The position numbers and the translations under genes are program-made. From the sequence record PV805633.1: a stretch of 64,000 nt of DNA; one strand, given 5' to 3'. A model generated the notes under the pieces. The model did not search any database. It was not told where the DNA came from and worked only from the letters and a program-made list of their open reading frames with translations. Below, piece after piece: positions 1 through 56,952 of this stretch. Within the stretch, counting starts at the first letter, position 1. Each line of letters opens with the position of its first letter. The stretch is from a phage.

Positions 1-57
1 CAGCATAAGGGTATCTCTTATTTGGGGTTATAAACCTGAAAGGAATCCCTCTAGTTT

Positions 58-93
58 GACCTCCCTATTGAAGGGAGGTCTTTTTTTTTTTTT
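58..93 (+). terminator. Rho-independent terminator (8-bp stem GACCTCCC/GGGAGGTC, 7-nt loop, T13 tract)
   Basis: Perfect inverted repeat 58-65/73-80 followed by 13 consecutive T (81-93). Confidence 0.75.
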
Positions 94-118
94 GACTTAA
101 ACAAACCGGAGCCAGGAA

Positions 119-307
119 ATGTATAAAGAGATTGCATTCTTCTCGTTCTTGTTAGGTGGGTTAATTGGTGCAGGATTTGTAGCCATTTCTAATAACTACT
201 TTGGTTCTACTCCAAATTCTGTAACACAAACCCTCAAGCATGAATGTGAATTGAATATCCCTCGTAACCAAAACTGCGTAATGCAGTTCGTACCGGAGAA
301 GAAATGA
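119..307 (+). CDS. hypothetical small protein (62 aa), hydrophobic N-terminal segment
   Basis: ORF track; GGAG ~8 nt upstream of ATG; stop overlaps next start (ATGA). Confidence 0.45.
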   Translation: MYKEIAFFSFLLGGLIGAGFVAISNNYFGSTPNSVTQTLKHECELNIPRNQNCVMQFVPEKK

Positions 308-564
308 ATATTCATAATCTACGTTTGGTTGAAAGACTGTATGAAGAATACAACGACAACCGACAGCAATTAGCTAGTATAAAAAAGTCCCCACATATGG
401 TGAAAGTAACCTTCTGTGATACAGATTTGGGGGTACAAGCACGTACAAGCATAATCCCTAAATTGGTAGCATTTTATCAGAAGAAAGTGGATGACTTAGA
501 GAAACGCCTAAAGCATTTAGGAGTTGACCTATCTTTATTACCTGAAGAAGAGGAAGAAGAGTGA
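304..564 (+). CDS. hypothetical protein (86 aa), acidic C-terminus
   Basis: ORF track; ATGA start/stop overlap with upstream gene. Confidence 0.5.
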   Translation: MNIHNLRLVERLYEEYNDNRQQLASIKKSPHMVKVTFCDTDLGVQARTSIIPKLVAFYQKKVDDLEKRLKHLGVDLSLLPEEEEEE

Positions 565-746
565 AACTAACCCAGTCCCAAGCAATTTTCCTTCGCATGA
601 TTCAAGGTGGTTCTGCCACCAGCAACCGTAATAACAAAACCGCACAGTCTCTTAAGAAGCTGGGCTTAGTACAGTTCAATGCTGGTCTTGGGTGGTCATT
701 AACCCCTACCGGCGTACTTCAACTCAACGAATTAAAAGGTAACTAA
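561..746 (+). CDS. hypothetical protein (61 aa), possible GTG start
   Basis: ORF track; GTGA overlap with upstream stop; start codon uncertain. Confidence 0.4.
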   Translation: MKLTQSQAIFLRMIQGGSATSNRNNKTAQSLKKLGLVQFNAGLGWSLTPTGVLQLNELKGN

Positions 747-1073
747 ATGAAAACTTTAATTGCTGTTGTTCTAGTAGCTCTATCAGTTCTGTCATTCGGT
801 GCTCAGGCATCCAGTCGTGCAACCTTGTTGGAATCTGCTGCTGATTACAAAGCCAATAATGCAAACTTTGTGAACCAGGGTTACTTCATGGGCATGGTTA
901 CTATGGGTGTGGAAGCAGGAAAGAATTGTGTACCTGACGGTATAAAATTAGGGCACATTTTTGACAGAGTGGCCTCTATTATTCTGTATGACCGAAAGGT
1001 TAATGCAGTAAAAGTACCATCAGACATGGTTCTGTTAGCGATTAATACAGCCTATCCCTGCGTTAAATCTTAA
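747..1073 (+). CDS. secreted/periplasmic small protein (108 aa) with N-terminal signal peptide
   Basis: MKTLIAVVLVALSVLSFGAQA signal-like N-terminus, two Cys in mature part; AAAGG upstream of ATG. Confidence 0.55.
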   Translation: MKTLIAVVLVALSVLSFGAQASSRATLLESAADYKANNANFVNQGYFMGMVTMGVEAGKNCVPDGIKLGHIFDRVASIILYDRKVNAVKVPSDMVLLAINTAYPCVKS

Positions 1074-1107
1074 TTAGTAATTCCATTAACTTTAGGAGAG
1101 TAAGTAA

Positions 1108-2160
1108 ATGGCGAACATTGACTCCTTGACTGTATGTAATACACGGCAAGCCCGTAACTTTATTATCCGTGCCTTGCAAGCAGGTAACGTACCGTTCCTG
1201 ACTTCATCACCGGGTATGGGTAAGTCTGCAATTATTCATTCTATTGCAGAAGAATTTGGTATGAAGCTGATTGACCATCGTTTGTCTACTTCTGCCCCAG
1301 AAGACTTATCTGGTCTACCATTCCGTAATGGTGACCGTGCAGAATTTATTCCTTTCGCTGATTTATTCCCTATCGAGGGTGACGAAGTACCGAAAGGTTA
1401 TAATGGCTGGCTCCTGTTCCTTGATGAGTTCAACTCAGCTAAAAAGGAAGTAGTAGCTGCTGCATACAAACTGATTCTAGACCGTATGACCGGACAGAAA
1501 AAACTTCACCCTAATGTGATGATTATCTGTGCCGGTAACAAAGCTACTGACCGAGCCATAGTTAACCCACTGGGTACTGCAATGCAGTCCCGTGTTGTCC
1601 ACTTCGAAATGGAACTCGACTTCGACATCTTTGTTGAAGACGTTATGATTCCACAAGAATGGGATGAGCGTCTGGTTGCATTCTTACATGCTAACCCTGG
1701 TTATCTGCATGACTTCGACCCTGCCCACAAGAACAAAACATTCTGTTGCCCACGTACCTGGGACTTTGTTAACAAAGACCTCAAGAACCGACCAGAAGGT
1801 GCTTTGCCTGATGAAGATTCTATCTACTATGCAGGCCACGTCACTGCTGGTAAAGCTACAGAGTTTGTTCAGTTCACTCAGGTATACAATCGTATGATTA
1901 CGATTGAGAAGGTAGTCAAAGACCCTTTGGGATGTGCACTACCGGAAGATAATAACCTGTGCTGGGCTACTGTTAACCATCTGGCTAACAAAACTACTGA
2001 AGATAACTTCGCTGATGTTCTTCAGTACATTGAACGCTTTAAAACGTTCACCCATAAGATTCTGTACTTCCGTACAGTAGGCAAAGCATTACCAGAAATT
2101 CAGGCTACCCCTGAATGGCGTAAAGCTGCTGCCAATATCTCTCGTTACATTCACGGATAA
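1108..2160 (+). CDS. MoxR-like AAA+ ATPase
   Basis: Walker A SSPGMGKSA, Walker B LLFLDEFN; 350 aa; strong RBS GGAGAG; paired with downstream VWA-like gene. Confidence 0.8.
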   Translation: MANIDSLTVCNTRQARNFIIRALQAGNVPFLTSSPGMGKSAIIHSIAEEFGMKLIDHRLSTSAPEDLSGLPFRNGDRAEFIPFADLFPIEGDEVPKGYNGWLLFLDEFNSAKKEVVAAAYKLILDRMTGQKKLHPNVMIICAGNKATDRAIVNPLGTAMQSRVVHFEMELDFDIFVEDVMIPQEWDERLVAFLHANPGYLHDFDPAHKNKTFCCPRTWDFVNKDLKNRPEGALPDEDSIYYAGHVTAGKATEFVQFTQVYNRMITIEKVVKDPLGCALPEDNNLCWATVNHLANKTTEDNFADVLQYIERFKTFTHKILYFRTVGKALPEIQATPEWRKAAANISRYIHG

Positions 2161-2167
2161 TCACAAC

Positions 2168-3343
2168 ATGAACCAGATACCTCAGCACACACTTAGTGAT
2201 GAACAACTCATGCGTGAGTATGACCGTATTCAGGCCCAAGCCTTCCTAGGCAAGTCTGCTGCGTTTTTTGGTTCATTGCTGTGTAGTCTTAAGTTCTCAT
2301 GGAAACGTGAGGGTTGTCCCACTGCATGTACCGATGGGATAGAACTCCATTTCAACCCTGACTTCTTTATCTGGATGTGCCCTGATGCAAGAGAAACAGT
2401 GCTAATGCACGAACTCTGGCATGTGGCATATCTGCATGGCATCCGTTGTGGAAGCCGTGACCCGGAAGTCTGGAACCAGGCATGTGACCACTTCATTAAC
2501 CTTCAGTTAGAGGAAGATGGTTACAAGTTCACTGGTATCGACGAAGGTATTTGCAAAGACCCTCAATATAAAGGATGGGTCGAAGAAGACATCTACGATG
2601 ACCTGATGAAGAACCCTCAGAAAAGGCAGAAGCCGTCGGGGGGAGCTGGAGCAAGTCTTGCTGGCGACATGAAAGCCCCCTCTTCGGGGCAGTCCCAGGG
2701 TGCTGTTGTCAACAACGTAGTGCGTGCAATGCAAAGCCAGAAGATGGCTGGTGGAACAATGCCCGGTAAAGGTGCTGGTCGTATGGAAGAGGTTATTACC
2801 CAATTCCTTAAACCAGTAGTTCCATGGCAGGAAGTTCTGATGAACTTCTTTACCGACATTGATGACACACATTATACGTGGGCCAGACCTAACCGTCGCT
2901 TCACTGACGTCTATCTACCTTCTCTGGAAGATGATGAAGGACGCTTACGACACTTAGCCTACTTTGAGGATGTATCCGGTTCTATTAGTAGTGCTGACTC
3001 TCTGCGTTTTAACTCAGAGGTTGCCTACGTTAAGAGCCAGTTCAATCCTAAGAAGATGACCCTAATTACCTTCGACGATATTATCCAAGAAGAAATAGAC
3101 ATCACTGAAGAAGATACTTTTGAAGAGATTAAGATTACTGGTCGTGGTGGTACAAACCTTGAACCAGTGCGCGAATGGATTATTAAGAATAAACCAACCG
3201 CTGCAATCATATTCTCCGATATGTATGTTCGTCCAATGGAAGAATTACCATTTGATATCCCTATCATCTGGTGTGTTCTGAATAATCCTAATGCTACCGT
3301 ACCTTTCGGGGAGGTAGTTCATATCCCTAAAGGAATGAAATAA
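2168..3343 (+). CDS. VWA/DUF2201-like protein with N-terminal HExxH metallopeptidase-like motif (partner of MoxR-like ATPase)
   Basis: LMHELWHVAYLHG motif; 391 aa; immediately downstream of the AAA ATPase, the usual arrangement for MoxR-VWA pairs. Confidence 0.65.
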   Translation: MNQIPQHTLSDEQLMREYDRIQAQAFLGKSAAFFGSLLCSLKFSWKREGCPTACTDGIELHFNPDFFIWMCPDARETVLMHELWHVAYLHGIRCGSRDPEVWNQACDHFINLQLEEDGYKFTGIDEGICKDPQYKGWVEEDIYDDLMKNPQKRQKPSGGAGASLAGDMKAPSSGQSQGAVVNNVVRAMQSQKMAGGTMPGKGAGRMEEVITQFLKPVVPWQEVLMNFFTDIDDTHYTWARPNRRFTDVYLPSLEDDEGRLRHLAYFEDVSGSISSADSLRFNSEVAYVKSQFNPKKMTLITFDDIIQEEIDITEEDTFEEIKITGRGGTNLEPVREWIIKNKPTAAIIFSDMYVRPMEELPFDIPIIWCVLNNPNATVPFGEVVHIPKGMK

Positions 3344-3849
3344 TGATTGTTAATGGTAATTCTCTATACCGTTCATCTCAATTGCTGGATGTCCCAGACC
3401 GTAAAGTATCCGAGCATGGTGTAAGCTATGGATTAGGTGAAGCTGGTTATGATATTCGTATCAAACAAGACATTACCTTCTATCGCTTATTTGGATTGAT
3501 TCCAATGGTGAAAATCGCTGATGGAAAACAAGTATCACGCCACTTCGGTAAGTTTGCATTGGCTTCAGCAATTGAGAAATTCAACATGTCCCCGTCCTGT
3601 GTAGCTATCGTTCACGATAAGTCCACATGGGCAAGACGTGCATTATCTGTGTTCAATACCGTAATAGAACCAGGATGGAAAGGGTATCTTACCCTCGAAC
3701 TGGTCTATCATGGTCGTAAGAAACTGCATATCCCGGCTGGTGCTGGGATAGCTCAAGTATTATTTCATCTGGTTCAAGAGCCTGCTAACTACAATGGCAA
3801 GTATCAGAACCAGGAAAACAAACCAGTTGCTGCAAGAAGCAGCAAATAA
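3343..3849 (+). CDS. dCTP deaminase-like protein (dUTPase superfamily)
   Basis: 168 aa; EPGWKGYLTLEL resembles the Dcd/dUTPase DPGW...G signature; ATGA overlap with upstream gene. Confidence 0.65.
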   Translation: MIVNGNSLYRSSQLLDVPDRKVSEHGVSYGLGEAGYDIRIKQDITFYRLFGLIPMVKIADGKQVSRHFGKFALASAIEKFNMSPSCVAIVHDKSTWARRALSVFNTVIEPGWKGYLTLELVYHGRKKLHIPAGAGIAQVLFHLVQEPANYNGKYQNQENKPVAARSSK

Positions 3850-3858
3850 GGAAACAAC

Positions 3859-4059
3859 ATGTCAGTATTTCAAGTATCTCCTGTTGACAGTACCCAACGT
3901 AAAACTATTGTTGCAACTAACGTAGTAGATGTAGATGAAACCCCGACTGGTGCTGTAATTCATCTGATTGATGGACGAACTGTAACTGTAAAAGAAAGCT
4001 ATCGTTCAGTACGTGGATATGTTCGTAAAGCTTTGACTGCTGACTCTGACGCAGAGTAA
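3859..4059 (+). CDS. hypothetical protein (66 aa)
   Basis: ORF track; GGAAACAAC upstream of ATG. Confidence 0.5.
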   Translation: MSVFQVSPVDSTQRKTIVATNVVDVDETPTGAVIHLIDGRTVTVKESYRSVRGYVRKALTADSDAE

Positions 4060-4071
4060 GTAGCTGCCTAA

Positions 4072-4097
4072 ATAGCCCAACTATGTTGGGCTATTTG
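4072..4097 (+). terminator. terminator-like hairpin (9-bp stem ATAGCCCAA/TTGGGCTAT)
   Basis: Perfect 9-bp inverted repeat with 5-nt loop followed by TTGTG; weak U-tract. Confidence 0.4.
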
Positions 4098-4132
4098 TGA
4101 AGAAACTATCTCAACCTCACATAGGAACCATC

Positions 4133-4393
4133 ATGGAATCTTTAGCAGCAATCCTCGTTCTGTTATTTGCACTTGCTGTATACCTTATCCCTACTATTAT
4201 TGCTTTTGCACGAGGCCATGCCTCTAAGTGGGGCATTGGTGTACTCAATATCGTATTAGGCTGGTCTTTAGTCTTCTGGGTAGTAGCACTGATTTGGTCA
4301 CTGTCTAATAAAGAACAGTCTCAGACTACAATCGTTAACGTTGGTAGTGGTAACCAGTACAACGTGTCTCAAACGAGCCTGTCTGATAAGTAA
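4133..4393 (+). CDS. small inner-membrane protein (2 predicted TM helices), possible superinfection-immunity-like
   Basis: MESLAAILVLLFALAVYLIPTIIAFARGH...NIVLGWSLVFWVVALIW; track ORF begins at an upstream GTG (4097), ATG at 4133 preferred. Confidence 0.5.
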   Translation: MESLAAILVLLFALAVYLIPTIIAFARGHASKWGIGVLNIVLGWSLVFWVVALIWSLSNKEQSQTTIVNVGSGNQYNVSQTSLSDK

Positions 4394-4467
4394 CTAACCT
4401 AAGCATCATTGTATAGTGGTGCTTGTGGAAGTTACTTCCAGCTCATTACTTATCCATCTCCTAATCC

Positions 4468-4494
4468 AAGCCCACCTAACCCGTGGGCTTTTTT
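4468..4494 (+). terminator. Rho-independent terminator (AAGCCCAC/GTGGGCTT + T6)
   Basis: 8-bp stem, 7-nt loop, TTTTTT tract. Confidence 0.7.
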
Positions 4495-4578
4495 AATTAC
4501 AGGTACTCTTATGTCAAACAGACAAATGGTAAGTCTATCTTATATGGACTGGACTTAAGTAAACTGGAACAAACTGCA

Positions 4579-4890
4579 ATGCTTACTTTAGGTATACATG
4601 ACCAAGTAGAAGTGAATGGAATTGGTCCTGATGTTTGTGCAGCAATGCAAGCTGCTATTCAGAAAGGATGGACTAGTAGATCATTTAATGTTTTCCCATA
4701 CATCCCTCCTGAACCTCATCTGAAATCTAAGGTAGACAGAATCATAGATAAGTTCTGGCTTAGCCCATGCGGGGATGACATGCATCTTTACCTGGCTCAA
4801 ATACAAAAGAATCCGCGTACTAAAGATGTGTTCAAAGGCAAAAGCACTACCCACCATTACCCTTGGTATAGAAGAGGTAGTAAATACTAA
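4579..4890 (+). CDS. hypothetical protein (start uncertain; track ORF begins at GTG 4483 inside the terminator stem)
   Basis: First in-frame ATG downstream of the terminator; no clear SD. Confidence 0.4.
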   Translation: MLTLGIHDQVEVNGIGPDVCAAMQAAIQKGWTSRSFNVFPYIPPEPHLKSKVDRIIDKFWLSPCGDDMHLYLAQIQKNPRTKDVFKGKSTTHHYPWYRRGSKY

Positions 4891-5333
4891 TGCGTATCCC
4901 ATTCCTAAGAAAAAGGGAACGAAATCCTGTTCTTTATAATAAAGGTATAGAGGATGAGTACGAACTCAACCGTAAAGCCCGTTCCTACGCAACAAAATTA
5001 TTCATGGGGACTAGCAACCCTAATAGATTACTGGACTTTGTTTTCGAACAAGTCTTTATCATATACAGCTTAGCTATGTCTGCTGGTTCACAAGAAGTAA
5101 GTGATAAGGCAAGATATGCTCTCTGTATGCTCCGGAAAGAGTATGAAGCCATCATGTATGAAGACTTGTACTCCTTTAAGAAAGAAACCGCTGTAGCGTG
5201 TTCTGTGGCTCTTACTGAAGGTATAGCAGTATTACAAGAACTACCCCGTAGTGAGTTTAAGCTGGTATATGTCCAGGCCAGGAGAATTACAGAAAACCGA
5301 AGTGGTATTACCAACTATCTAAGGTCATTCTAA
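4890..5333 (+). CDS. hypothetical protein (147 aa)
   Basis: ORF track; start overlaps upstream stop. Confidence 0.55.
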   Translation: MRIPFLRKRERNPVLYNKGIEDEYELNRKARSYATKLFMGTSNPNRLLDFVFEQVFIIYSLAMSAGSQEVSDKARYALCMLRKEYEAIMYEDLYSFKKETAVACSVALTEGIAVLQELPRSEFKLVYVQARRITENRSGITNYLRSF

Positions 5334-6277
5334 TGATTAAGGCAACTGTCATTGCAGATTCCGTTCATCATGTAACGGGTACTCGTATTACTACCTTTGA
5401 ATTGGTTTATCCTCGATTCATTCACAGTGAGTTTATGACCCACCGTGTATTCAACCGAAATGCTTCAAGTAGTCGTGCTATCCCTACTTCTAAGTTCATC
5501 GAACAGGTTCGTAATGAACCAGTGATGCCAAGTCACTGGGGCAAGAACCAGAAAGGTATGCAGGCATTTGAAGAATTGTCTGAAGACCAGTGTAGTGATG
5601 CAACCTTTATCTGGGAACAGGCTGCATCCAGTGCTGCTACCTATGCAGAAATGCTACGTCGTGGACAAGTACATAAGCAGATTGTTAACCGTATTCTGGA
5701 GCCATTCACACATATCCGTGTAGTAGTAACTTCAACTAGCTGGGCTAACTTCTACGGCTTGCGTGACCATGAAGATGCTCAACCAGAGATTCGTGAATTA
5801 GCTCAAGCAATGCGTAAGGCTCATAATGAAAGTGTTCCATCTAAGCTGTCCCAAGGTGTGTGGCATCTGCCTTATATTCGCAAGATTGATTGTATTAACG
5901 CTTACGATCATTGCAAATATCAACGAGTTACTTGTGATAAACCAAGTGATGAAGAAGTTATAGGCTTACTGCTTAAAGTCTCTGCTGCTCGTTGTGCTCG
6001 TGCCTCCTATAACAACTTTGAAGGCAAGCCATCTACTATTAGTGATGACCTTGCTCTCTTTGCTAAGTTGGTAGAGAAACAACCAATTCATGCATCACCT
6101 ACTGAGCATCAAGCTACCCCGATGGACTTCAGTACCAAGTTTGTTAACAACCAGAACCCATTAACCTGGGAACAAGGTGTTACTTCAATGGACCGGGAAG
6201 GTAAGCTGTATTCTGGTAACTTAATGGATTTCATCCAATTCCGTAAACTAATCCCCGGAGAAACAATTACAGAATGA
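5333..6277 (+). CDS. thyX: flavin-dependent thymidylate synthase ThyX
   Basis: 314 aa; RFIHSEFMTHRVFNRNASSSR matches the ThyX RHR...S.R signature region; ATGA overlap with upstream gene. Confidence 0.7.
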   Translation: MIKATVIADSVHHVTGTRITTFELVYPRFIHSEFMTHRVFNRNASSSRAIPTSKFIEQVRNEPVMPSHWGKNQKGMQAFEELSEDQCSDATFIWEQAASSAATYAEMLRRGQVHKQIVNRILEPFTHIRVVVTSTSWANFYGLRDHEDAQPEIRELAQAMRKAHNESVPSKLSQGVWHLPYIRKIDCINAYDHCKYQRVTCDKPSDEEVIGLLLKVSAARCARASYNNFEGKPSTISDDLALFAKLVEKQPIHASPTEHQATPMDFSTKFVNNQNPLTWEQGVTSMDREGKLYSGNLMDFIQFRKLIPGETITE

Positions 6278-6510
6278 AGCGTTTAGCTATCCAAGCAATG
6301 ATTGTAAGCATCATCCTGGTTCTGGAATTTGTATTTGCACTGCATGGTGCACAGAGCCTGGAAGGGATGTTTTTCGTAGTAGCTCGTTTCTCTGCATGTG
6401 TTCTTGGCTTATGGTGTGTGTATTACTATGCACGCGACTATGTAGCTATCAAGGAACATGATGATGCTAAGGAACGTCTACGACAATTCGTAGAAGAGAA
6501 TCGTAAGTAA
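6274..6510 (+). CDS. small membrane protein (78 aa)
   Basis: Two hydrophobic segments; ATGA overlap with thyX stop. Confidence 0.5.
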   Translation: MKRLAIQAMIVSIILVLEFVFALHGAQSLEGMFFVVARFSACVLGLWCVYYYARDYVAIKEHDDAKERLRQFVEENRK

Positions 6511-49010: not shown

Positions 49011-49511
49011 CTATTCAAAAAGTTTACGGTCAGCCTGAATTTGCTTACCCAACTCAATTAGTTGGTTGTCACGGAGTCTAACAGTTGCCCGGAGTTCTTC
49101 AACCAAACGTCTGCCTTCTTCAAGACTGTTGTCGAGTCTGGCTGCATGGCTTGCAAGACTTCTGCACTCAAGGGTTCCGGCTTCGGCTTGACGTTTATAT
49201 ACCGATGCTCGTCTTTCAGACTGTTGCATCCGGCTGTCGTAATCACTGCTAACGCGAGCAAGCTCGCTTGCGTAATTACTCTCAGCCGTCTGCAACCGGG
49301 AAGTAAGTAACCCGACTTCATAACTATGGTTTCTTTGGAGAGCATTGTATTTGTCCTGTAGTTTTTGTGTTGCCTTCTGGTCTTCAACCTTTTGAGCATC
49401 CCATCTCTTTTGGACAGTAGACTGTCCATTGGAATTGCCCCAAAAGTAAATGGTGGCCCCGAGGACCACCACCAGAAGATAAGGCCAACCTTTAGAGATT
49501 AGCATCTTCAT
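49011..49511 (-). CDS. Rz-like i-spanin (N-terminal TM helix, coiled-coil periplasmic domain)
   Basis: [27 protein letters not shown] followed by a charged coiled-coil region; GGAGG 7 nt before ATG 49511; contains an embedded lipoprotein ORF. Confidence 0.65.
49058..49321 (-). CDS. Rz1-like o-spanin lipoprotein embedded within the Rz gene in another frame
   Basis: Signal peptide with lipobox-like ...[12 protein letters not shown], Pro-rich mature region; wholly inside Rz. Confidence 0.55.
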   Translation of the reverse strand: MKSGYLLPGCRRLRVITQASLLALAVITTAGCNSLKDEHRYINVKPKPEPLSAEVLQAMQPDSTTVLKKADVWLKNSGQLLDSVTTN

Positions 49512-50126
49512 TACATGCCTCCAGTGGTACATTACCGATTCGGTTAGCTACCCAACCATACGTAAAGTCTGGCATGTTCAATGAGGTGTAGTGGTTCAAT
49601 TGTTTAGCATCAAGCAACTTAATCATTACCTGACATGCTGCAACTTTGCCTCGTTTTTTCTGTAATGCTTTATATGCATTAACAGTACCTGCACCGACTT
49701 TACCATCAACTTGTATTTTAGGGTAGTCTTTGCCATCACGGGACATTTCATTAAGGGATTGCTGCAACCACTTAGCTGGTCTGGTTACACCGGTATTAAC
49801 ACCAGCATCAACCAGTTTGTGTGTTACAGCAGGAGATATATCAGCGAAGGCTACGAAGTTAGGCTTAATAACGTAGTCATCAATGTATATCTCAGCAGCC
49901 ATTTCTTTCGATAAACCCTTCATGGAACCATCCCAACCATACTCAGTAGCCAGAACTTCTTTGTGAGACTTAGCTACTGATTGGGTAATACCATGATTGG
50001 TTTCCCCACCTGGGTCACGAGGATTGTTTACGTACCCCCTTCCATATAGAACACTGCCCCCAGAATAGCAGCGATAACTCCTCCCACCGCACCCCCTTTT
50101 GCAGCAAGTTTCTGTTTAGCTTTCAT
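49492..50126 (-). CDS. GH108 N-acetylmuramidase endolysin with PG-binding domain and N-terminal Gly/Ala-rich TM (SAR-like) segment; frame broken at a C5 run (50035-50039)
   Basis: Frame 0 from ATG 50126 encodes MKAKQKLAAKGGAVGGVIAAILGAVFYMEGGT*; the -1 frame continues with the family motif GYVNNPRDPGGETNHGIT and the track ORF 49492-49923; combined length ~210 aa. Confidence 0.65.
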
Positions 50127-56252: not shown

Positions 56253-56674
56253 CCTCGTTGTTCAAATTTAGTTTCGGTAATTGAAATACTTCCATTAGCC
56301 AGGTCGTAATCAACAACCTCACCACAGATGCTTTCATACGTTTGCAGATACTCTGCTGCTTTAGCGTTAGCTTCAGGAGTATTCAAACCAGTGTGGTAAC
56401 GATAACCCACCCAGTTATGAAGTGCCGTCATTAGCGTGTCAGCTAAATCAACTTCCTGTTCTTCATCACCCGTAAGTACTGGGTGCTTAGCTTGATACGT
56501 TACGTTAAGTGCCTCGAAGTGTCGAGGTCTCATACACTGAATAGTATCAGGCCGTGGAGTGAAAATAGCACGAGGGTCTGAGTCGTCGTTCAGTCTACGT
56601 CGATTCCCAGAGTTATCAAACACATTTAGGATTTTAATAACATCATCCTGGAAAGGCTTCATGAACCCATCCAT
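56243..56674 (-). CDS. virion/tail-associated protein (143 aa); start uncertain
   Basis: ORF track; overlaps upstream 97-aa ORF by 16 nt; no SD close to the ATG. Confidence 0.45.
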   Translation of the reverse strand: MDGFMKPFQDDVIKILNVFDNSGNRRRLNDDSDPRAIFTPRPDTIQCMRPRHFEALNVTYQAKHPVLTGDEEQEVDLADTLMTALHNWVGYRYHTGLNTPEANAKAAEYLQTYESICGEVVDYDLANGSISITETKFEQRGWR

Positions 56675-56952
56675 GATATAAGGATATTGAACCTCAAGAG
56701 TAGGCTGAGTAAATTTGAGTAAGCATATTTGGATTGAAGAGGATAATCAGTACGTCCTTCCTTCATCTCTACAATGCAGCTATTTGTCTTAAGGGGGAAA
56801 CGACTATGAAGTCGTACCAGTCCTTCATTAATAGCTGCCAGTATCTCCGGCTTACTATCTGGTTCAATATCCAGTCTGTCATCCGTGACTGCACCAGTAC
56901 CTTTTAAGGTACTTAGTGCCAAGCCACGGTATACTTCCGATAGTTTCTGCAT
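56659..56952 (-). CDS. hypothetical protein (97 aa); C-terminal ~20 residues look out-of-frame
   Basis: ORF track; may form one gene with the 143-aa ORF. Confidence 0.4.
   Translation of the reverse strand: MQKLSEVYRGLALSTLKGTGAVTDDRLDIEPDSKPEILAAINEGLVRLHSRFPLKTNSCIVEMKEGRTDYPLQSKYAYSNLLSLLLRFNILISWMGS

Follow-up and report, generated by a model that had tools for sequence, protein, structure and literature searches.

The DNA analyzed here, which we call the window, is a stretch of 64,000 nucleotides (nt) from a phage, given in sequence record PV805633.1 and read on one strand. We concentrate on two small genes near its start, one (747-1073) for an exported protein related to the Rap1a/Tai4a immunity proteins and one (4133-4393) for a membrane protein of the Imm superinfection-immunity family. 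Window bases 1 to 6500 are 96.6% identical to Escherichia phage vB_EcoP_G7C (G7C), and the same query reaches at least 80% coverage in 55 N4-like coliphage records, the majority of which belong to the genus Gamaleyavirus (family Schitoviridae); by sequence similarity, the window is a Gamaleyavirus, an N4-like coliphage close to G7C. Both genes are real open reading frames (ORFs) on the plus strand and are kept as genes in dozens of related phages; this conservation shows that neither is a chance ORF. Their position relative to the RNAPII genes places both in the middle-gene region, and their expression would presumably be timed accordingly. The features on which the argument depends are as follows.

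747..1073, plus strand: gene for a Rap1a/Tai4a-like exported protein of 108 amino acids (aa), a predicted periplasmic five-helix bundle with one disulfide; 100% identical to G7C gp17.3.
747..809, plus strand: predicted Sec-type signal peptide, residues 1-21, with predicted cleavage at AQA/SS (before Ser22); hydrophobic segment 1-23 and AXA motif.
927..959, plus strand: Cys61 with the loop that leads from it to the beginning of helix 3 (residues 61-71), by entropy the most variable stretch of the family.
4133..4393, plus strand: gene for an Imm-family superinfection-immunity membrane protein of 86 aa with two transmembrane segments; ortholog of G7C gp27.1.

An earlier note on this DNA had described the product of 747-1073 as likely periplasmic on the basis of a signal peptide and two cysteines, and this description holds. 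The predicted signal consists of an n-region (MK), a 15-residue hydrophobic core (TLIAVVLVALSVLSF) and a c-region (GAQA) followed by SS; Kyte-Doolittle analysis gave a single hydrophobic segment, residues 1-23, and the protein has exactly two cysteines, C61 and C105. The periplasmic location was judged from sequence features only. The ATG at 747 has an AAGG 9 to 12 nt upstream and directly abuts the TAA stop codon of the preceding gene, gp17.2; because of this arrangement, the two genes are probably translationally coupled.

The mature domain of 87 aa is all-helical in an AlphaFold2 (AF2) model in which the predicted local distance difference test score (pLDDT) exceeds 90, and the model has the five-helix Rap1a fold. 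In a Foldseek comparison with the PDB, Tai4 or Rap1a chains made up 8 of the 13 top matches, including the first five, and the only strong fold matches of the model were Tai4 6IJE and Rap1a 3ZFI. In the model, C61 lies in the loop between helices 41-57 and 68-81 and C105 lies near the C terminus, 44 residues away, the bond itself being predicted. Rap1a itself has five helices, resides in the periplasm and loses a signal sequence of 26 residues by cleavage, and a disulfide that joins Cys78, in the loop between helices 2 and 3, to Cys122, near the C terminus, is critical for its fold (PMC3852654). The spacing and positions of Cys61 and Cys105 are those of this Rap1a disulfide, and the cysteines align in the profile alignment.

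Based on this fold and the sequence comparisons that follow, the 747-1073 protein is a divergent member of the Rap1a/Tai4a superfamily, and both the family and the fold assignment are firm. Residues 44-105 match the Pfam Rap1a profile (PF18602) at positions 26-90 with 19.5 bits and an E value of 1.4e-3, and other phage alleles score between 14 and 24 bits; the PHROG family of the protein has no known function. The 108 close homologs, all on contigs of ~70 kb or on fragments, share invariant C61 and C105 and a QGY(F/Y)MG motif. A profile of the phage family (A1), built from 17 phage sequences and searched without a word index against 1.8 billion representatives, retrieved 23 proteins, of which the closer ones lie on N4-like phage contigs. 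The same profile retrieved proteins P0118 to P0129 at E values of 1.8e-5 to 9e-4; all 11 that were scanned among these score 35 to 82 bits on PF18602 (cutoff, 27.7 bits) and so are bona fide Rap1a proteins. A joint profile of phage and bacterial sequences (A2) matched PDB chains 4BI8, 3ZFI, 6IJE and 6IJF at E values of ~1e-3. In a tblastn search, an Enterobacter protein named "Rap1a/Tai family immunity protein" (P0119) found G7C gp17.3 with ~30% identity over 99% of its length. Across the aligned phage and bacterial members, G49, C61 and C105 are invariant. A search of IMG/VR with profile A1 returned four close relatives only.

The solved members of the family are Rap1a of Serratia marcescens ("Tai4a"; 3ZFI and 4BI8) and Tai4 of Agrobacterium tumefaciens (6IJE and 6IJF), which are periplasmic immunity proteins against the Tae4/Ssp1 peptidoglycan DL-endopeptidases of type VI secretion systems (T6SS). 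Rap1a blocks the active site of Ssp1 through Gln84, which contacts the catalytic His133 (PMC3852654). The window protein differs from these relatives in several respects. It is only 10 to 15% identical to the solved proteins, it is carried by a virulent phage without adjacent effector or T6SS genes, and its residue 67, which aligns with Rap1a Gln84, is a lysine, whereas other alleles have glutamine, lysine or proline at this position.

Names pointing to this family have already been attached to the phage gene. In UniProt and BFVD, the orthologs of phages SP5M and Bp4 are called "Rap1a immunity protein domain-containing protein," and in GenBank a Tai4 or Rap1a label stands on the ortholog in the records of nine phages among the tblastn matches. 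Four of these nine are the subject of the UE-phage paper, which has "Tai4" in its GenBank records and never in its text, and a literature search for phage-encoded T6SS immunity or for Tai4 in Gamaleyaviruses found no discussion. The novelty of the present assignments is therefore modest, since public databases already carry Imm and Rap1a/Tai4 labels for the two genes.

The Rap1a-like gene is a hotspot of allele swapping and is far more diverse than the genes on either side of it, which show 92 to 99% identity overall. In phi G17, Moonfish, Bp4, ECBP1 and one metagenomic contig, the protein is 37 to 58% identical to that of the window, compared with 92 to 97% for the upstream flank, gp17.2, and 95 to 97% for the downstream flank, the ATPase gene gp24, in the same five relatives. 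Synonymous divergence (dS) from the window in phi G17, Moonfish and ECBP1 is 0.9 to 1.8 for the Rap1a-like gene and 0.1 to 0.46 for both flanks. The ratio of nonsynonymous to synonymous divergence (dN/dS) is ~0.35 overall, with pairwise values of 0.16 to 0.40, against ~0.05 for neighboring enzymes. Positive selection was considered and rejected: the pairwise ratios never exceed 1, and dS is raised as well. Since dS and dN are raised together, the divergence reflects old alleles exchanged by recombination rather than fast local evolution.

This variation is distributed unevenly along the protein. The signal peptide (residues 1-6 and 15-17 invariant) and a C-terminal YPC.KS motif are nearly invariant across alleles. 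Among 105 sequences, entropy peaks at residues 64-66 and 70-71, just after Cys61, and position 70 is occupied by 13 different residues. In the hidden Markov model (HMM) alignment, Cys61 pairs with Rap1a Cys78 and position 67 with the plug residue Gln84 (Cys78+6), within the Rap1a segment WCQYSQLQ. Variability at this plug-equivalent segment would fit a specificity surface that faces diverse partners.

In every Gamaleyavirus examined, the Rap1a-like gene has a fixed position directly upstream of the gp24 ATPase gene, and its neighbors are small phage genes and gp24; neither a Tae4/Ssp1 effector nor a T6SS cluster is adjacent. The same arrangement, directly upstream of gp24, was found on two N4-like phage contigs, L006 and the more distant L008. 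On two more distant N4-like contigs, L007 (4322-4654) and L004 (1869-2204), the gene lies directly downstream of a different AAA ATPase of ~250 aa; on L007, a Band_7 (SPFH) membrane protein is encoded nearby. Of the bacterial relatives, P0124 and P0119 lie in integrase/resolvase islands.

Lone copies occur in a variety of settings. Bona fide Rap1a-family genes of E. coli and of Enterobacter roggenkampii or E. kobei (L015, 5025-5366; L016 and L017, 6001-6333) lie alone in integrase/resolvase islands, each followed by a small unannotated gene (142 or 121 aa), with no Tae4 adjacent; the E. coli orphan island had no match among 5,426 complete E. coli genomes. Phage DSL-LC04 (L022, 4001-4327) has a lone Rap1a-like ORF that is labeled "type VI amidase," which is the name of the target and not of the immunity protein, and Cronobacter phage ENT47670 (L023, 4001-4270) has a lone unannotated Rap1a-like ORF wedged among head genes. 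Bacillus phage Dartukuta has a Rap1a-like match at 56593-56883, which is surprising for a periplasmic family since Bacillus is Gram-positive; more lone copies are among the BFVD entries for "uncultured Caudovirales." Mobile elements therefore carry this branch of the family as orphans, and the activity proposed for it, by analogy, is that of two characterized proteins. The window gene resembles orphan immunity genes on mobile elements in being a lone Rap1a-family gene, on a mobile carrier, without an effector; unlike these, its carrier is strictly lytic, so that any protection would last for one infection cycle only.

The second gene is a more familiar one. The earlier note had recognized in 4133-4393 a protein with two transmembrane segments and motifs reminiscent of superinfection-immunity proteins, and had named similarity to known immunity families as a check; this similarity was found in Pfam, PHROG and BLASTP comparisons. 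The Pfam profile PF14373 (Imm_superinfect) is matched from position 1 to 42 of 42 with 61.1 bits (cutoff, 27.9 bits; E value, 9e-17), and phrog_1039, "immunity to superinfection," is matched at an E value of 4.5e-34. By BLASTP, the protein is 32% identical to T4 Imm (57% positives) over 69 aa, colinear from Met1, with an E value of 2e-10. In 19-residue Kyte-Doolittle windows, it has hydrophobic segments at approximately residues 1-28 and 33-59 with the loop ARGHASK between them, and the motifs IIAFARGH, NIVLGW and VVALIW are present. A tblastn search found relatives in 454 phage records, among them the imm genes of many T4-like phages and also a group of Acinetobacter phages. The assignment is correct and is not new, as the ortholog is already annotated as an immunity protein in the G7C, PhAPEC7, Bp4 and ECBP1 records, in the wording "immunity to superinfection" in the GenBank and RefSeq entries of G7C.

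The start of imm was placed at ATG 4133, which has an AGGA 8 to 11 nt upstream and agrees with the G7C annotation. A GTG at 4097, which would give a longer ORF, was rejected; it follows directly after a 12-bp hairpin and has no ribosome-binding site. The gene forms a cassette between two hairpins, and this cassette is optional in the genus, being absent from phi G17 and Moonfish.

4068..4094, plus strand: perfect 12-bp hairpin, AAATAGCCCAAC-TAT-GTTGGGCTATTT, read from the sequence; a stem_loop is annotated there in G7C. Left border of the imm cassette.
4468..4490, plus strand: intrinsic-terminator-like hairpin followed by a T run; PhAPEC7 carries a terminator annotation at the corresponding site. 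Right border of the imm cassette.

T4 Imm and the window protein are of similar size (83 and 86 aa), the Pfam domain is matched end to end, and the two share a layout, with a pair of hydrophobic segments, a short loop of basic character and a C-terminal tail that is hydrophilic. They differ in that the carrier here is an N4-like podovirus, a phage that injects a giant virion RNA polymerase, rather than a T-even myovirus, no Spackle homolog lies beside imm, the C-terminal tail of the window protein is unrelated, and imm is here a hairpin-bounded cassette that some phages of the genus are without. Family membership is firm, and superinfection exclusion is the activity that the protein would have by analogy with T4: the 86-aa Imm would insert as a hairpin protein into the inner membrane and keep the DNA of later-arriving phages from crossing the cytoplasmic membrane.

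It could be envisioned that imm and the Rap1a-like gene form an obligate pair or functional unit. This possibility was rejected, as imm is missing from phi G17 and Moonfish, which keep the Rap1a-like gene. The two genes are ~3 kb apart, with nucleotide-metabolism genes and terminator-like hairpins between them; they are independent modules, and only the Rap1a-like gene is universal in the genus.

We consider it fairly probable, by analogy with their characterized relatives, that the two are unrelated accessory genes whose products act on the infected cell's envelope, with Imm as an exclusion factor and the Rap1a-like protein as an inhibitor of an incoming endopeptidase. This reading starts from observations of how the genes are built, which families and folds their products belong to, their export signals and conservation, and the concentration of allelic diversity at the plug-equivalent segment; the biochemical activities of both proteins, the identities of their targets and the timing of their expression are what we infer. 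The earlier note had grouped 747-1073 among candidate exclusion or envelope-modifying factors, which was fair as an umbrella term; it missed the Rap1a/Tai4a identity, and exclusion is one of several possible roles.

For the exported protein, we postulate the following sequence of events. The gp17.3-type precursor would be exported by the Sec pathway and cleaved after AQA; the Cys61-Cys105 disulfide would form in the periplasm, and the mature domain would adopt the Rap1a/Tai4a bundle of five helices. If it acts like Rap1a and Agrobacterium Tai4, the mature protein would bind an incoming papain-like peptidoglycan DL-endopeptidase of the Tae4/Ssp1 type and plug its active site. The enzyme may come from the T6SS of a neighboring bacterium, which we slightly favor, or alternatively from the virion of a rival phage; with either source, the infected cell would keep an intact sacculus for as long as the phage needs to finish. 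In its general form, this is the tentative proposal that virulent N4-like coliphages shield the infected cell with a periplasmic Tai4a-type inhibitor against incoming peptidoglycan-cleaving toxins, and that allele diversity tracks enzyme diversity; we regard it as possible and hold it with limited confidence. Such toxins might be amidase effectors that competing gut bacteria deliver through the T6SS, or the hydrolases of rival phages, in which case the protein would be a nonhomologous analogue of the T4 protein Spackle.

Several observations weigh against such a shield. The window protein scores below the PF18602 gathering score (19.5 against 27.7 bits), and the phage-only profile A1 had no match among PDB sequences even at an E value of 10. 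No papain-like, NlpC/P60 or CHAP domain turned up when the lysis proteins and ten virion proteins were scanned against Pfam and PHROG; the sole wall hydrolase in those scans is the phage endolysin, a GH108 muramidase with a PG_binding_3 domain. Annotations of related genomes, the whole-genome annotation of UE-S5b included, list no Tae4, amidase, NlpC/P60 or T6SS gene. The four nearest bacterial Rap1a relatives read in context (P0124, P0119, P0125 and P0121) are lone genes with no Tae4 adjacent, and therefore T6SS immunity is not proven for this branch; the fold family as a whole has only two members with an established function. Selection on the gene is purifying on average (dN/dS, ~0.35). Finally, the small neighboring genes gp27 and gp30.1 are equally mosaic, and because of this, mosaicism alone is not diagnostic.

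Other roles must be weighed against this proposal. One explanation may be that the Rap1a-like protein is a functional analogue of T4 Spackle (gp61.3) and inhibits the virion peptidoglycan-degrading enzyme of a superinfecting phage, so that together with Imm it would provide a two-layer exclusion like that of T4 Imm and Sp. Spackle is a small early phage protein with a mature form of 75 aa; exported to the periplasm, it is a bundle of alpha helices that holds one disulfide, and it acts as an inhibitor of the gp5 lysozyme (PMC7677548). The likeness in size, location, helical fold and single disulfide allows a functional analogy, the same phage carries an Imm homolog, and allelic diversity at the plug-equivalent segment would suit an arms race with rival phages. 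Homology to Spackle was considered and set aside, as Pfam, PHROG and Foldseek searches detected no sequence or fold relationship to the 747-1073 protein. The target enzymes also differ, a lysozyme for Spackle and papain-like amidases for the Rap1a family, and we judge a Spackle-like role to be rather improbable. A target within the host is yet more doubtful. Here the protein would act, unrelated to incoming toxins, on a periplasmic enzyme of the NlpC/P60 type, such as MepS or MepH, or on an outer-membrane receptor, and the cell wall would be remodeled or frozen or receptors would be masked. The fixed position next to core middle genes in every Gamaleyavirus examined fits a routine role in infection, and the lone state of the four nearest bacterial relatives, without a neighboring effector, means that this branch may have functions other than immunity to a cognate T6SS effector. 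However, a conserved target predicts a conserved binding surface, yet no part of the protein varies more than the plug-equivalent loop, and among phages that share a host species the alleles are as much as 63% different.

For Imm, the alternative is that the protein is not an exclusion factor in this phage and has another membrane role, such as in lysis timing or in membrane remodeling for replication. T4 Imm is the sole experimentally studied member of a large family, and the C-terminal tail varies by allele, so that alignments to other Gamaleyavirus Imm proteins cover 74 to 86% of the query. A 2025 preprint on N4 lysis reports no characterized superinfection-exclusion system for N4, and G7C shows no lysis inhibition (PMC12642591); N4-like phages are likewise without a characterized exclusion system (PMC12642591). 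Against this alternative, the match to the family and to T4 Imm is full-length and colinear, imm lies far from the lysis cassette (~49 to 50.7 kb), and its behavior is what one would expect of an exclusion moron, namely that of an accessory cassette that lies between hairpins and is dispensable. We consider a role other than exclusion to be unlikely.

The surrounding genes follow the order of G7C: gp17.1, gp17.2, gp17.3, gp24, gp25, gp26, gp27, gp27.1 (imm), gp28, gp29 and gp30, with gp24 annotated as an AAA ATPase, gp25 as a metallopeptidase/VWA protein, gp26 as a dCTP deaminase and gp30 as ThyX. There are local differences in content. The HNH homing endonuclease gene gp24.1, which lies between gp24 and gp25 in G7C, is absent from the window (site 2160-2168); an ORF at 304-564 (86 aa, phrog_19185) is present in the window, Bp4 and ECBP1 and not in G7C, PhAPEC7, phi G17 or Moonfish; and the gp28 homolog of the window (4483-4890) has no counterpart in G7C. 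A further hairpin precedes the translationally coupled block of small genes at 119-1073, of which the Rap1a-like gene is the last.

58..80, plus strand: terminator-like hairpin with a 9-bp stem (6 GC pairs) followed by T10; the records of G7C and PhAPEC7 mark a stem_loop or terminator here too.

The block opens with the gp17.1 homolog (119-307, 62 aa), a protein with a single transmembrane segment at the N terminus and a tail that contains two cysteines. The gp30.1 homolog (6274-6510, 78 aa) contains two hydrophobic segments, and its two alleles are very divergent (38 to 41% against 86 to 94% identity); both proteins are assigned only to PHROGs of unknown function. Just upstream of imm, the gp27 homolog (3859-4059) has only a weak Pfam match, to FlbD, and likewise occurs as two deeply divergent alleles, with 93 to 94% identity in G7C and PhAPEC7, 40 to 52% in UE-S5b, phi G17, Moonfish, Bp4 and ECBP1, and dS above 1.

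In the lysis region, the endolysin gene (approximately 49492-50126, minus strand; GH108 and PG_binding_3 domains, with a signal-arrest-release [SAR]-like N terminus, MKAKQKLAAKGGAVGGVIAAILGAVFYMEGG) is frameshifted. At ~50037-50038, the window is one A short of G7C (GGAAGGAGGGTAC versus GGAAGG-GGGTAC), and 901 window bases in this region correspond to 902 in G7C, PhAPEC5, PhAPEC7 and F22. The frame therefore closes at a stop after 32 codons, and a separate ORF of 143 aa is left; this reflects either a sequencing or assembly error or a lysis-defective variant.

Of the two genes, the Rap1a-like one is the more useful lead, the Imm homolog being routine and already annotated. Therapeutic use of Gamaleyaviruses is being proposed against both uropathogenic E. 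coli (UPEC) and avian pathogenic E. coli (APEC), and the design of phage cocktails is affected by exclusion genes. A strictly lytic phage here conserves a periplasmic protein of a family known only as immunity proteins against T6SS cell-wall amidases. If phage enzymes are neutralized, this would be a second, independent invention of the Spackle strategy; if T6SS effectors are neutralized, phage infection would transiently alter the outcome of contact-dependent bacterial killing in the gut. Should the proposed shield prove true, a lytic virus would be defending its host cell against interbacterial warfare within a single infection cycle.

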